A DNA stretch of 64,000 bases from Escherichia coli (GTDB taxonomy: Bacteria; Pseudomonadota; Gammaproteobacteria; Enterobacterales; Enterobacteriaceae), in assembly GCF_044647545.1 (NCBI RefSeq), contig NZ_CP172818.1. One strand, 5' to 3'. The position numbers and the translations under genes were made by a program. The notes under the pieces were generated by a model. The model had not been told where the DNA came from. It saw only the letters and a program-made list of their open reading frames with translations, and did no database searches. Positions 19,460 to 26,624 of this stretch are shown in pieces; positions within the stretch are counted from its first letter, which is position 1; the number at the start of each line of letters is the position of its first letter.

Positions 19460-19473
19460 TTGATATGGATTAA
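19460..19473. promoter_or_regulatory. Candidate FNR box upstream of ynfE
   Basis: TTGAT-ATGG-ATTAA vs consensus TTGAT-N4-ATCAA (1 mismatch), ~105 nt upstream of ynfE start. Confidence 0.3.
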
Positions 19474-19572
19474 TAATTCTTAACCCAAAATAGGTAGACT
19501 CCCTCTATTGTTAGCGCGCTAAATATTCAATATATAAACTTTTATATAACGATAAAGAACAGGGAGTGAGTT

Positions 19573-21999
19573 ATGTCCAAAAATGAACAAATGGTGGGCA
19601 TCAGCCGCAGAACACTCGTTAAATCTACCGCGATAGGTTCTCTGGCGCTGGCTGCAGGTGGTTTTTCTTTACCGTTCACCCTGCGCAGTGCAGCGGCAGC
19701 GGTACAACAGGCCAGCGAGAAAGTGGTCTGGGGTGCCTGTTCCGTCAACTGTGGTAGCCGCTGTGCACTTCGTCTGCATGTTAAAGATAATGAAGTGACC
19801 TGGGTGGAAACTGACAACACCGGCAACGACGAGTATGGCAATCATCAAGTACGTGCCTGTTTGCGCGGTCGCTCCATCCGTCGGCGTATTAATCATCCCG
19901 ATCGCTTGAATTACCCAATGAAACGCGTGGGCAAACGCGGCGAAGGCAAATTCGAACGGATTAGCTGGGATGAAGCCCTGGATACTATCGCCAGTAGCCT
20001 GAAAAAAACCGTCGAACAATATGGCAATGAGGCTGTATATATTCAGTACTCTTCAGGGATCGTTGGCGGCAATATGACCCGCTCTTCACCATCAGCCTCG
20101 GCGGTCAAACGCCTGATGAACTGCTACGGCGGTTCACTCAATCAGTATGGCTCCTACAGCACCGCGCAAATTTCCTGTGCCATGCCCTACACCTACGGCA
20201 GTAATGATGGCAACAGCACCACGGATATTGAAAACAGCAAGCTGGTCGTGATGTTTGGTAACAACCCGGCAGAAACCCGCATGAGCGGCGGTGGCATCAC
20301 TTATCTTCTTGAAAAAGCGCGCGAGAAATCGAACGCAAAAATGATTGTTATCGATCCGCGATATACCGATACGGCTGCTGGTCGTGAAGACGAATGGCTA
20401 CCTATTCGCCCGGGCACCGATGCCGCGCTGGTTGCGGGTATTGCCTGGGTATTGATTAACGAAAATCTCGTTGATCAACCTTTTCTCGATAAATACTGCG
20501 TCGGCTATGACGAAAAAACCTTACCCGCAGATGCACCAATAAATGGTCACTATAAAGCCTATATTCTTGGTGAAGGTGATGATAAAACAGCGAAAACGCC
20601 GCAGTGGGCTTCGCAAATTACCGGTATCCCGGTGGACCGTATCATCAAGCTGGCGCGTGAAATTGGCACAGCAAAACCCGCTTATATCTGCCAGGGCTGG
20701 GGGCCGCAACGCCAGGCAAACGGTGAGCTGACCGCACGCGCTATTGCTATGTTGCCTATTTTGACGGGCAATGTCGGCATCAGCGGCGGAAATAGTGGCG
20801 CGCGTGAATCGACCTATACCATTACCATAGAACGCCTGCCGGTGCTGGATAATCCGGTCAAAACGTCAATCTCCTGCTTCAGCTGGACGGATGCTATCGA
20901 TCATGGCCCGCAAATGACGGCAATCCGCGACGGCGTCCGGGGCAAAGATAAACTGGATGTGCCCATTAAGTTCATCTGGAACTACGCGGGAAATACCCTG
21001 GTTAATCAGCATTCTGACATCAACAAAACGCATGAAATTCTGCAGGACGAATCGAAATGCGAAATGATTGTGGTCATCGAAAACTTTATGACCTCATCGG
21101 CAAAATATGCCGACATTCTGCTGCCAGACCTGATGACCGTTGAGCAGGAAGATATTATTCCTAACGATTACGCCGGTAACATGGGATATCTCATTTTCCT
21201 TCAGCCAGTCACCAGCGAAAAATTCGAACGCAAACCGATTTACTGGATCCTGAGTGAGGTCGCGAAACGTCTTGGACCTGACGTCTATCAAAAGTTCACT
21301 GAAGGTCGCACTCAGGAACAATGGTTACAACATCTGTACGCCAAAATGCTTGCCAAAGATCCGGCGTTACCGTCTTACGACGAACTGAAAAAAATGGGTA
21401 TCTATAAGCGTAAAGATCCCAATGGTCATTTTGTCGCCTACAAAGCATTTCGTGACGACCCCGAGGCAAATCCACTTAAAACGCCTTCCGGTAAGATCGA
21501 AATTTACTCCAGCAAGCTGGCGGAAATTGCCCGTACCTGGGAACTGGAAAAAGATGAAGTGATAAGCCCACTGCCGGTTTATGCCTCAACCTTTGAAGGC
21601 TGGGACTCCCCTGAACGTAGTACCTTTCCACTGCAACTGTTTGGTTTCCATTACAAATCCCGTACTCACTCGACCTACGGCAATATTGATGTCCTGAAGG
21701 CAGCCTGCCGTCAGGAAGTGTGGATCAACCCTATAGATGCACAGAAACGTGGGATTGCCAACGGCGATATGGTGCGGGTGTTTAACCATCGTGGCGAAGT
21801 TCGGCTACCAGCCAAAGTGACACCACGCATTCTCCCTGGGGTTAGCGCTATGGGCCAGGGAGCCTGGCACGAGGCCAATATGTCTGGCGATAAAATCGAC
21901 CATGGCGGCTGTGTGAATACGCTAACCACTCTGCGCCCCTCACCACTGGCGAAGGGAAACCCGCAGCACACTAATCTGGTCGAGATCGAAAAAATATAA
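19573..21999 (+). CDS. ynfE: Mo-bisMGD oxidoreductase catalytic subunit, DmsA paralog (putative selenate reductase), Tat-exported
   Basis: 808 aa; twin-arginine motif SRRTLVKS; Cys cluster CSVNCGSRC; DMSO reductase family. Confidence 0.9.
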   Translation: MSKNEQMVGISRRTLVKSTAIGSLALAAGGFSLPFTLRSAAAAVQQASEKVVWGACSVNCGSRCALRLHVKDNEVTWVETDNTGNDEYGNHQVRACLRGRSIRRRINHPDRLNYPMKRVGKRGEGKFERISWDEALDTIASSLKKTVEQYGNEAVYIQYSSGIVGGNMTRSSPSASAVKRLMNCYGGSLNQYGSYSTAQISCAMPYTYGSNDGNSTTDIENSKLVVMFGNNPAETRMSGGGITYLLEKAREKSNAKMIVIDPRYTDTAAGREDEWLPIRPGTDAALVAGIAWVLINENLVDQPFLDKYCVGYDEKTLPADAPINGHYKAYILGEGDDKTAKTPQWASQITGIPVDRIIKLAREIGTAKPAYICQGWGPQRQANGELTARAIAMLPILTGNVGISGGNSGARESTYTITIERLPVLDNPVKTSISCFSWTDAIDHGPQMTAIRDGVRGKDKLDVPIKFIWNYAGNTLVNQHSDINKTHEILQDESKCEMIVVIENFMTSSAKYADILLPDLMTVEQEDIIPNDYAGNMGYLIFLQPVTSEKFERKPIYWILSEVAKRLGPDVYQKFTEGRTQEQWLQHLYAKMLAKDPALPSYDELKKMGIYKRKDPNGHFVAYKAFRDDPEANPLKTPSGKIEIYSSKLAEIARTWELEKDEVISPLPVYASTFEGWDSPERSTFPLQLFGFHYKSRTHSTYGNIDVLKAACRQEVWINPIDAQKRGIANGDMVRVFNHRGEVRLPAKVTPRILPGVSAMGQGAWHEANMSGDKIDHGGCVNTLTTLRPSPLAKGNPQHTNLVEIEKI

Positions 22000-22056
22000 C
22001 CCTCTACAACCATAAATTCTGGCATGACATTTTGTTTGAAAAGCAATAAGTGAGTA

Positions 22057-25111: not shown

Positions 25112-25112
25112 A

Positions 25113-25967
25113 ATGGGAAATGGATGGCATGAATGGCCACTGGTTATCTTTACCGTATTGGGTCAATGCGTAGTAGGCGCGCTGATTGTTAGCGGAATTG
25201 GCTGGTTCGCCGCCAAAAATGACGCAGACCGTCAGCGTATTGTCCGTGGCATGTTTTTCCTCTGGCTGTTGATGGGCATCGGGTTTATTGCCTCTGTCAT
25301 GCACCTGGGGTCGCCACTGCGGGCGTTTAACTCGCTGAATCGAATCGGAGATTCTGGTCTGAGTAACGAGATTGCTGCCGGTTCCATATTTTTTGCCGTT
25401 GGCGGATTATGGTGGCTGGTGGCAGTCATCGGTAAAATGCCGCAAGCGTTGGGGAAACTCTGGTTACTTGTCAGCATGGCGCTCGGCGTCATTTTCGTCT
25501 GGATGATGACCTGCGTGTATCAAATCGACACAGTGCCAACCTGGCATAACGGTTACACTACGCTGGCTTTCTTCCTGACAGTATTGTTGAGCGGTCCAAT
25601 ACTTGCTGCCGCAATTCTGCGAGCAGCCCGCGTTACATTTAATACCACACCATTTGCCATCATTAGCGTTCTGGCGCTGATCGCTTGTGCCGGGGTGATT
25701 GTGCTGCAAGGTTTGTCTCTGGCGTCTATTCACTCATCCGTACAACAAGCCAGCGCACTGGTACCAGATTACGCCTCCTTACAGGTCTGGCGTGTGGTAT
25801 TGTTATGCGCAGGTCTAGGATGCTGGCTTTGTCCGCTCATTCGTCGCCGTGAACCTCACGTTGCCGGACTTGTTCTGGGGCTAATCCTCATACTTGGCGG
25901 TGAGATGATCGGGCGTGTGCTCTTTTATGGCCTGCACATGACGGTAGGAATGGCTATTGCAGGTTAA
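25113..25967 (+). CDS. ynfH: Membrane anchor subunit (DmsC paralog)
   Basis: 284 aa from MGNGWHEW, multiple TM segments; six-frame ORF extends upstream inside ynfG. Confidence 0.85.
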   Translation: MGNGWHEWPLVIFTVLGQCVVGALIVSGIGWFAAKNDADRQRIVRGMFFLWLLMGIGFIASVMHLGSPLRAFNSLNRIGDSGLSNEIAAGSIFFAVGGLWWLVAVIGKMPQALGKLWLLVSMALGVIFVWMMTCVYQIDTVPTWHNGYTTLAFFLTVLLSGPILAAAILRAARVTFNTTPFAIISVLALIACAGVIVLQGLSLASIHSSVQQASALVPDYASLQVWRVVLLCAGLGCWLCPLIRRREPHVAGLVLGLILILGGEMIGRVLFYGLHMTVGMAIAG

Positions 25968-26009
25968 CAAATTGGTGCGGGGCAACCCGCACATTTCAGG
26001 ATGTTAGGA

Positions 26010-26624
26010 ATGACCCATTTTTCACAGCAAGATAATTTTTCTGTCGCGGCGCGCGTGTTGGGCGCGCTGTTTTATTACGCTCCAGAGAGTGCGGAAGCCG
26101 CACCTCTGGTTGCGGTACTCACCAATGACAGCTGGGAAACTCAGTGGCCTCTACCAGAAGCGTCATTAGCGCCGCTGGTGACTGCTTTTCAGACACAGAG
26201 TGAAGAGACTCACGCCCAGGCCTGGCAGCGTTTGTTTGTCGGCCCGTGGGCACTGCCGTCACCGCCGTGGGGATCGGTCTGGCTGGATCGCGAATCTGTG
26301 CTGTTTGGCGATTCAACATTGGCACTTCGTCAGTGGATGCGCGAGAAAGGCATTCAGTTTGAAATGCAGCAAAACGAACCGGAAGATCATTTTGGTTCAC
26401 TGCTGTTGATGGCTGCGTGGTTGGCGGAGAATGGTCGCCAGACAGAATGCGAAGAATTGCTGGCATGGCACCTTTTTCCGTGGTCAACACGTTTTCTTGA
26501 CGTTTTTATCGAAAAAGCAGAACACCCTTTCTACCGTGCACTGGGTGAACTCGCTCGCTTAACGCTGGCGCAATGGCAATCACAACTGTTGATTCCTGTC
26601 GCGGTTAAACCGCTGTTTCGATAG
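26010..26624 (+). CDS. dmsD: Tat proofreading chaperone DmsD (TorD family)
   Basis: 204 aa from MTHFSQQ. Confidence 0.9.
   Translation: MTHFSQQDNFSVAARVLGALFYYAPESAEAAPLVAVLTNDSWETQWPLPEASLAPLVTAFQTQSEETHAQAWQRLFVGPWALPSPPWGSVWLDRESVLFGDSTLALRQWMREKGIQFEMQQNEPEDHFGSLLLMAAWLAENGRQTECEELLAWHLFPWSTRFLDVFIEKAEHPFYRALGELARLTLAQWQSQLLIPVAVKPLFR

Follow-up and report, generated by a model that had tools for sequence, protein, structure and literature searches.

The Escherichia coli ynfEFGH-dmsD operon carries an ancient pair of catalytic subunit genes behind an FNR-activated promoter

Here we describe the ynfEFGH-dmsD operon, a paralogue of dmsABC, in a 64,000-nucleotide stretch of Escherichia coli DNA (NCBI RefSeq assembly GCF_044647545.1, contig NZ_CP172818.1; the whole stretch is called the window below, and positions count from its first nucleotide). 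The operon carries two catalytic subunit genes in tandem, ynfE and ynfF. Their duplication is ancient and has been kept by purifying selection, and it does not represent recent redundancy. The two proteins are most likely isoenzymes with overlapping but non-identical substrate ranges that would be served by one electron-transfer chassis. We put the probability of the account as a whole (the identity of the operon, a class II FNR promoter, two diverged catalytic isoenzymes and one electron-transfer module) at about 95%. The locus is the known E. coli operon itself, neither a new member of the family nor a variant of it, and the paralogy, the shared subunits, the control by FNR and NarL and the selenate phenotype have all been published already. 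The tandem catalytic paralogy was reportedly described by Lubitz and Weiner in 2003, and the K-12 operon is said to be treated also in Guymer et al. 2009, Xu, Busby and Browning 2009 and Fujita et al. 2021.

YnfE and YnfF both retain their catalytic residues

Five co-directional genes on the + strand span positions 19573 to 26624 in the list of open reading frames, and the RefSeq annotation names them ynfE, ynfF, ynfG, ynfH and dmsD, with ynfC and ynfD upstream of the operon and clcB downstream. A first-pass annotation, made from the sequence alone, had proposed two mutually similar catalytic subunits with twin-arginine translocation (Tat) signals, followed by single genes for an iron-sulfur (FeS) subunit, a membrane anchor and the DmsD chaperone. 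RefSeq, Pfam and NCBIfam bear out each of these identities, and the single FeS, anchor and chaperone genes do follow the catalytic pair.

The first gene, ynfE (19573-21999, + strand), encodes a Tat-exported catalytic subunit of 808 residues, of the type that carries molybdenum-bis(molybdopterin guanine dinucleotide) (Mo-bisMGD) and a [4Fe-4S] cluster, as assigned by RefSeq, Pfam, NCBIfam and residue mapping. The second, ynfF (22060-24483, + strand), encodes its paralogue, annotated at 807 residues and assigned by RefSeq, Pfam and the NCBIfam model selenate_YnfF. Over 801 residues the two proteins show 71% identity and 85% similarity (E = 0), a likeness far beyond chance that upholds the proposed relationship, and each is 67-68% identical to DmsA. 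Both carry the Pfam domain trio Molybdop_Fe4S4, Molybdopterin and Molydop_binding. Moreover, the two score 1396 and 1285 bits against the family model TIGR02166 (dmsA_ynfE; cut-off 778), and each passes the curated cut-off of its own subfamily model, with 1797 bits for YnfE against NF041885 (selenate_YnfE; cut-off 1675) and 1774 bits for YnfF against NF041884 (selenate_YnfF; cut-off 1650).

Inactivating changes in the molybdenum ligand or the cysteine cluster of one paralogue would have refuted the first-pass reading, and we found none: the cysteine group and the serine are intact in both proteins. The FS0 motif C-X3-C-X3-C-X31-C is kept in YnfE (C56/C60/C64/C96) and in YnfF (C59/C63/C67/C99); the corresponding cysteines of DmsA are C63/C67/C71/C104, and all four columns are invariant in the alignment of the three proteins. 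Equally invariant is the serine of a G-x-Y-S motif (YnfE Ser196, YnfF Ser195, DmsA Ser205), which aligns with Ser147 (gdyS) of the Rhodobacter sphaeroides dimethyl sulfoxide (DMSO) reductase 1eu1. Ser147 of the Rhodobacter enzyme is a ligand of the molybdenum. A search of a PDB copy returned no solved structure of DmsA, YnfE or YnfF, and its best match was the Rhodobacter DMSO reductase. The proposed Tat signals are likewise present in both paralogues, as S-R-R-x-L-x-K motifs (SRRTLVK, S11-K17, in YnfE; SRRSLMK, S15-K21, in YnfF) that are each followed by a hydrophobic region and an alanine-rich c-region. YnfE and YnfF are catalytic subunits of the DmsA/YnfE subfamily of molybdenum-bis(pyranopterin guanine dinucleotide) (Mo-bisPGD) enzymes; the bound cofactor and the reductase activity are predicted here from their sequences.

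The proposed length of 808 residues for each protein is right for YnfE; YnfF reaches it only when translation starts at an in-frame ATG at 22057, one codon ahead of the annotated start at 22060. The two genes share a GTGAGTnATG block before the start (19565-19575 and 22049-22062), and by analogy with ynfE the first ATG of ynfF, at 22057, may be the one that is used.

The ynfE/ynfF duplication is old and both copies are under purifying selection

At the DNA level ynfE and ynfF share 70% nucleotide identity, their synonymous sites are saturated (proportion of synonymous differences, pS, 0.70), no identical run is longer than 20 nt, and identity stays at or below 80% in every local segment. A neighbour-joining tree with outgroups from a representative library places YnfE and YnfF as sister clades (bootstrap 0.995), each monophyletic at 1.0. 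The YnfE clade takes in Yersiniaceae and Budvicia (bootstrap 1.0), and YnfF lies outside the whole of it. We surveyed 80 Enterobacterales species loci (numbered with the prefix L below, like the other sequences used for comparison). True orthologues of YnfF (about 90% identity), paired with ynfE, were confined to Citrobacter amalonaticus, Salmonella enterica subsp. arizonae, S. enterica subsp. diarizonae and Pseudocitrobacter faecalis, and most of the surveyed genera have a single ynfE. A recent tandem duplication, or an older one homogenised by gene conversion, with both copies kept for dosage, would explain why the genes stand in tandem and in the same orientation, why their lengths are nearly equal and why they have the ribosome-binding and start block GTGAGTnATG in common. 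We nevertheless rejected this reading as scarcely credible, given the modest nucleotide identity, the saturated synonymous sites, the lack of high-identity tracts, the YnfF orthologues in Salmonella, C. amalonaticus and Pseudocitrobacter, and the position of YnfF outside an entire YnfE clade that includes the Yersiniaceae. The redundancy that the first-pass annotation had called unusual is therefore a real tandem pair, but an ancient and diverged one that has reportedly been known since 2003, and tandem catalytic subunits are found in Yersiniaceae as well.

YnfF is slightly closer to the YnfE of Enterobacteriaceae (0.367) than to that of Yersiniaceae (0.397), so an old duplication followed by many losses is not separable from a later duplication followed by accelerated change. 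We also considered a mosaic origin of YnfF, with a DmsA-like N-terminus joined to a YnfE-like body, and rejected it: sliding-window identities and informative sites (EF 100, EA 76, FA 67) show no clear breakpoint, and YnfF resembles DmsA in the n-region of the signal peptide only.

Both genes evolve under strong purifying selection, with dN/dS (the ratio of nonsynonymous to synonymous divergence) of 0.02-0.04 across Escherichia, Salmonella, Citrobacter and Pseudocitrobacter. Between E. coli and Salmonella, YnfF changes less than YnfE (dN 0.052 for ynfF, 0.079 for ynfE). At the same time, 49 positions separate the two clades: all 18 full-length YnfE proteins compared share one residue there, and all 4 YnfF proteins share another. 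The first-pass annotation had suggested aligning the two proteins to locate diverged substrate-funnel residues, and this alignment does expose a diverged loop, which holds the most striking cluster of the clade-fixed changes: it reads SGIVGGNMTRS-SPSAS in YnfE, TGVDGGNITNSNVP----- in YnfF and TGTLGGTMTRSWPPG in DmsA, so that Arg170 of YnfE is replaced by an asparagine (Asn173 of YnfF) and five residues are deleted. This segment aligns with the active-site loop of the Rhodobacter DMSO reductase that contains Tyr114 and Trp116, in an alignment that crosses gaps and is approximate only. In DmsA, Thr148 and Arg149 (old numbering), which lie in this loop, affect substrate specificity. We favour the isoenzyme reading because the duplication is ancient and selected and because the active-site loop of YnfF appears remodelled.

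Natural loss of ynfF and the role of the second copy

The operon is tied to selenium oxyanions by genetic work. Deletion of ynfEF abolishes selenate reduction in E. coli, and the lone srnA of Enterobacter restores it (PMC12724226); tellurate is also a substrate according to genetic work in the literature. In Salmonella, YnfE is the main selenate reductase (PMC5203670).

Several observations weigh against two functionally distinct enzymes. In Salmonella, YnfF makes no great contribution to selenate reduction, and the same paper states that no biochemical assay of YnfE or YnfF exists (PMC5203670). Natural losses of ynfF are common: at a coverage of at least 80%, ynfF is found in 4739 of 5426 E. 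coli genomes and ynfE in 5111. A pseudogene allele of ynfF, 1570 bp long, has lost about 580 and 275 bp in two internal deletions and bears the annotation "frameshifted", with ynfE intact; it lies at 5001-6570 of L083 (strain TUM13770) and at 5264-6833 of L085 (EC958, of sequence type (ST) 131) and matches window positions 22060-24483. The deletion junction is present in 546 of the 5426 complete E. coli genomes (about 10%), the ST131 strain EC958 among them. Because EC958 carries the pseudogene, published expression work on "ynfF" in this strain measured a pseudogene. Moreover, ynfF has been lost in Escherichia whittamii, where a single gene (L003 8001-10440) has a ynfE body (97% identity) but ends in the final codons of ynfF (…EKV*) and is followed by the GGAGTAGCCCATG junction that lies downstream of ynfF; judged by its sequence, this gene arose when the tandem paralogues recombined unequally at their conserved 3' ends, with ynfF deleted. 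The pseudogene allele and the loss in E. whittamii mean, therefore, that ynfF is dispensable in some lineages. A further deletion is seen in strain MB07152 (L084 4288-5326), in which IS1B abuts a 336-bp 3' remnant of ynfF, and ynfE, ynfD, ynfC and neighbouring genes are gone, with ynfGH-dmsD kept.

These losses would be expected if YnfF were a redundant, decaying copy, a pseudogene in the making that leaves YnfE as the only relevant enzyme. The selenate reduction kept by a Salmonella ynfF deletion and the small share of YnfF in it (PMC5203670) point the same way, as do the lower coverage of ynfF across E. coli genomes, the collapse of the pair to one gene in E. whittamii, the absence of ynfF from most genera of Enterobacteriaceae, and a 2026 pangenome paper in which ynfE and ynfF rank with the metabolic genes most often turned into pseudogenes in E. 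coli (PMC13322260). However, the copy in the window is intact with every catalytic motif present; where ynfF is retained, it is more conserved between genera than ynfE, at a dN/dS of about 0.03; and the residues specific to YnfF are fixed in each of the four genera with the gene. The fixed residues and the low dN point to a maintained distinct function rather than to drift, and we regard decay as unlikely. The stronger claim, that YnfF is a distinct enzyme with a physiological substrate of its own, plugged into YnfGH alongside YnfE and not a back-up selenate reductase, is one that we hold tentatively and at less than even odds; it is suggested by the loop change together with the 48 other fixed differences, by the tighter conservation of YnfF and by its small share in Salmonella selenate reduction. 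If this were true, the repeated loss of ynfF would mark niches that lack the substrate. Together, the sequence evidence leans to diverged isoenzymes over pure redundancy, and the clade-fixed differences in the active site and the natural ynfF knock-outs (EC958, E. whittamii) offer modest handles on why two catalytic subunits are kept.

The operon is preceded by a conserved FNR-activated promoter

The FNR binding site upstream of ynfE, TTGATATGGATTAA, occupies positions 19460-19473 (+ strand, centre 19466.5) and is supported by a pattern search, by conservation across 19 genera and by published chromatin immunoprecipitation sequencing (ChIP-seq). It fits 9 of the 10 specified bases of the consensus TTGAT-N4-ATCAA and is identical to the site in K-12. 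An FNR-like box had been noted here on first reading, and both the match and its conservation hold up; the word "candidate", used for it then, was right about the site but understates its standing, given that a ChIP-seq study reports a single FNR site at -40.5 and classes the ynfE operon as one that FNR activates directly, in category 1 (Myers 2013; PMC3688515). In the same work, sigma-70 occupancy and expression at the ynf promoter are higher without oxygen (PMC3688515).

Taken by itself, the pattern is not beyond chance: the window contains two matches to TTGAT-N4-ATYAA where 0.55 would be expected, and 14 of 100 shuffles gave at least two. The second match, TTGATAAATATTAA at 14214-14227 (- strand), lies in AT-rich DNA at the junction of a prophage integrase and rspB, and we rejected it as a further FNR-regulated promoter, since it is most likely a chance occurrence. 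A chance match in AT-rich intergenic DNA, with no regulatory role, could thus be argued for the box upstream of ynfE too, the more so as one of its half-sites (ATTAA) departs from the consensus. This argument fails on position and cross-genus conservation, which are the reasons why we take the box as real. Across 19 genera its TTGA and TAA cores never vary and keep their spacing to the -10 element and the start codon, with unconserved flanks, and conservation extends to the non-consensus TTAA half. In the 19-genus upstream alignment the 18 invariant columns all fall into three blocks, namely the FNR box, GTAnA at 19494-19498 from the -10 and the NarL-like half-site, and the ribosome-binding site with the start codon. 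Among 78 orthologous upstream regions, 24 hold the exact pattern TTGAT-N4-ATYAA and 43 the looser TTGA-N6-TYAA, mostly 100-116 bp before the ATG. A box of the same type (ttgatgaggattaa) precedes srnA of Enterobacter (PMC12724226). With the ChIP-seq site, the direct activation and the anaerobic, nitrate-repressed behaviour confirmed in reporters (PMC6561318) added to this, we give the chance explanation almost no weight.

The box is followed by a weak candidate -10 element, TAGACT (19495-19500, + strand), whose T, A and A are invariant in the 19 genera. A promoter scan found no -35 match and no sigma-70 consensus promoter upstream of ynfE, as one would expect of a promoter that depends on an activator. 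Counting from the -10 candidate, transcription would start near 19507, which would put the centre of the box at about -40.5; this agrees with the -40.5 listed in PMC3688515, the canonical class II position being about -41.5. A Shine-Dalgarno sequence, GGGAG (19562-19566, + strand), lies within the conserved GGAGTGAGTnATG block and in columns that are invariant across the 19 genera.

Repression by NarL, together with activation by FNR, is credited to Xu, Busby and Browning 2009 and was re-confirmed with reporter strains (PMC6561318). A plausible operator is a 7-2-7 inverted heptamer pair, TAACCCA-AA-ATAGGTA (19481-19496, + strand), which overlaps the spacer of the promoter as well as bases 1 and 2 of the -10 element and is conserved across genera as TACCYCnAAATARGTA, with GTA invariant in the 19-genus alignment. 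By count alone such pairs are not distinctive, in that matches to TACYYMT-NN-AKRRGTA with 2 mismatches, as here, are at chance level in the window (3 found, 2.96 expected); from its position and conservation the pair is nonetheless likely to be the NarL operator. Base 19492, in the right heptamer, differs between strains, giving ATAGGTA in the window and ATGGGTA in K-12, and both fit AKRRGTA.

One electron-transfer module and one chaperone follow the catalytic pair

Downstream of the pair, ynfG (24494-25111, + strand) encodes the electron-transfer subunit, with 16 cysteines in four ferredoxin-type groups, as identified by TIGR02951 (DMSO_dmsB, 265 bits) and by comparison of cysteine positions with DmsB. 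YnfG is 94% identical to DmsB, and all 16 cysteines stand at DmsB positions. We considered gene conversion as the source of this identity and rejected it: the synonymous sites of ynfG and dmsB (L002 3415-4032) are saturated (pS 0.71), and the protein identity therefore reflects constraint. With a dN of 0.04, against 0.25 for the catalytic subunits and 0.35 for the anchor, the FeS subunit is far more constrained than its partners. The anchor gene, ynfH (25113-25967, + strand), encodes a DmsC-type membrane protein by its Pfam DmsC match (E = 1e-128) and its hydropathy, with 8 hydrophobic segments and 58% identity to DmsC. The operon ends with dmsD (26010-26624, + strand), which encodes a Tat-proofreading chaperone of the NarJ family, 204 residues long (NCBIfam equivalog PRK11621, 346 bits); DmsD is needed for DmsA, YnfE and YnfF and binds their signal peptides (PMC5203670, PMC10609526). 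With these genes next to those for the catalytic subunits, the operon belongs to the DmsABC-type three-subunit complex iron-sulfur molybdoenzymes that have a dedicated chaperone.

E. coli DmsABC has the same three-subunit architecture, Tat leader, FS0 motif, serine molybdenum ligand and dependence on DmsD, but it has one catalytic subunit and its operon lacks a chaperone gene. DmsA forms a clade apart from YnfE and YnfF (bootstrap 0.97), and DmsC is only 58% identical to YnfH.

From these parts a working model can be drawn. In anaerobiosis, FNR bound at -40.5 would recruit RNA polymerase, and one class II promoter would drive all five genes. In the presence of nitrate, phospho-NarL would block the promoter, most likely by occluding RNA polymerase from the 7-2-7-like site. 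DmsD would stay on the Tat leaders of both catalytic subunits until these have received FS0 and Mo-bisMGD. Each catalytic subunit would then be exported by Tat, presumably piggy-backed with YnfG, and would dock on the single module of YnfG, with its four [4Fe-4S] clusters, and YnfH. By homology with DmsABC, we infer that electrons pass from menaquinol through YnfH, YnfG and FS0 to the molybdenum, where a periplasmic oxyanion or oxide (selenate, tellurate) would be reduced. The operon is thus relevant to anaerobic respiration and to the reduction of selenium and tellurium oxyanions; it is also the home of dmsD, a model Tat-proofreading chaperone, and its promoter has already been used as a trigger in gut biosensors.

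Strain variation and related operons

Several E. coli chromosomes, FDAARGOS_497, ST648 and ECONIH1 among them, match the 8-kb stretch from 19000 to 27000 at 100% identity, and at least 80% of this stretch is found in 5060 of 5426 complete E. coli genomes. The ynfEFGH-dmsD operon of K-12 (ynfEFGHI, b1587-b1591) is the same locus in another strain, with identical gene order. Compared with K-12 MG1655, YnfE differs at 10 residues, YnfF at 4, YnfG at none, YnfH at 4 and DmsD at 4, and a single base (19492, A in the window and G in K-12) distinguishes the 160 bp that precede the ynfE ATG. These differences are strain-level polymorphism only.

A close relative in another genus is the orthologous tandem pair of the Salmonella enterica ynfEFGH-dmsD operon, in which YnfE matches the window protein at 87% identity and YnfF does so at 91-92%. 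The same genes follow downstream, a TTGAC-N4-ATTAA box stands at the same position, and the Salmonella YnfE and YnfF are likewise 71% identical to each other (PMC5203670); the n-region of Salmonella YnfE differs in sequence from that of the window protein. The srnABCD operon of Enterobacter cloacae encodes a YnfE orthologue, SrnA (Enterobacter loci about 86% identical), which shares with ynfE the type of its FNR box and the Tat motif SRRTLVK (PMC12724226), but SrnA is its only catalytic subunit, with no YnfF beside it.

Yersiniaceae (Serratia, Rahnella, Ewingella) resemble E. coli in having two tandem DmsA-family genes followed by one set of FeS subunit, anchor and chaperone genes, yet the second of the two is a DmsA orthologue (81-82% identity to the E. 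coli protein) that falls inside the DmsA clade and is not a YnfF. Such ynfE-dmsA-B-C-dmsD stretches occur in eight loci of the survey (L065, L069, L072, L074, L075, L078, L079 and L080). This cluster may represent the ancestral context, which would explain why dmsD of E. coli sits in the ynf operon and not in dmsABC. The anchor subunits of Yersiniaceae are about equidistant from YnfH and DmsC (about 60% identity), so that their assignment is uninformative.

Other arrangements turned up in the survey. In about 20 species dmsD comes immediately after ynfE, and tblastn detected neither ynfG nor ynfH (L004, L010, L012, L021, L028, L031, L033, L040, L044, L050, L052, L053, L059, L061, L066-L068, L071, L076 and L077); an orphan YnfE with its chaperone would have to borrow DmsBC or another module. 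One of these loci, L053, is titled Chryseobacterium sp. 18061 and has an Enterobacteriaceae-type ynfC-ynfD-ynfE-dmsD order, with 84% identity to the YnfE of E. coli; mislabelling or contamination of the assembly is probable. In C. amalonaticus (L016 12957-13841), the match to YnfG ends at residue 167 and is followed by a gap of about 380 bp before ynfH, which suggests an insertion or disruption of ynfG.

Within the window operon, scans for consensus sigma-70 promoters and for terminators found no promoter-like or terminator-like site in the 60-nt spacer between ynfE and ynfF. The 42-nt spacer between ynfH and dmsD contains a GC-rich hairpin, GTGCGGGGCAACCCGCAC (25975-25992, + strand), with a perfect 7-bp stem (GTGCGGG-GCAA-CCCGCAC) and no T-run after it on the + strand; the terminator scan reports it for the - strand only. 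The hairpin could affect dmsD expression or messenger RNA stability. An Rfam scan of the whole window found no RNA family in or near the operon and no molybdenum cofactor riboswitch. Elsewhere in the window, the same scan matched the DicF small RNA at 10623-10674 (+ strand, 76.7 bits) and a cspA-type thermoregulator 5' untranslated region at 2451-2843 (- strand, 158.8 bits), and these matches identify the first part of the window as Qin-like prophage DNA.

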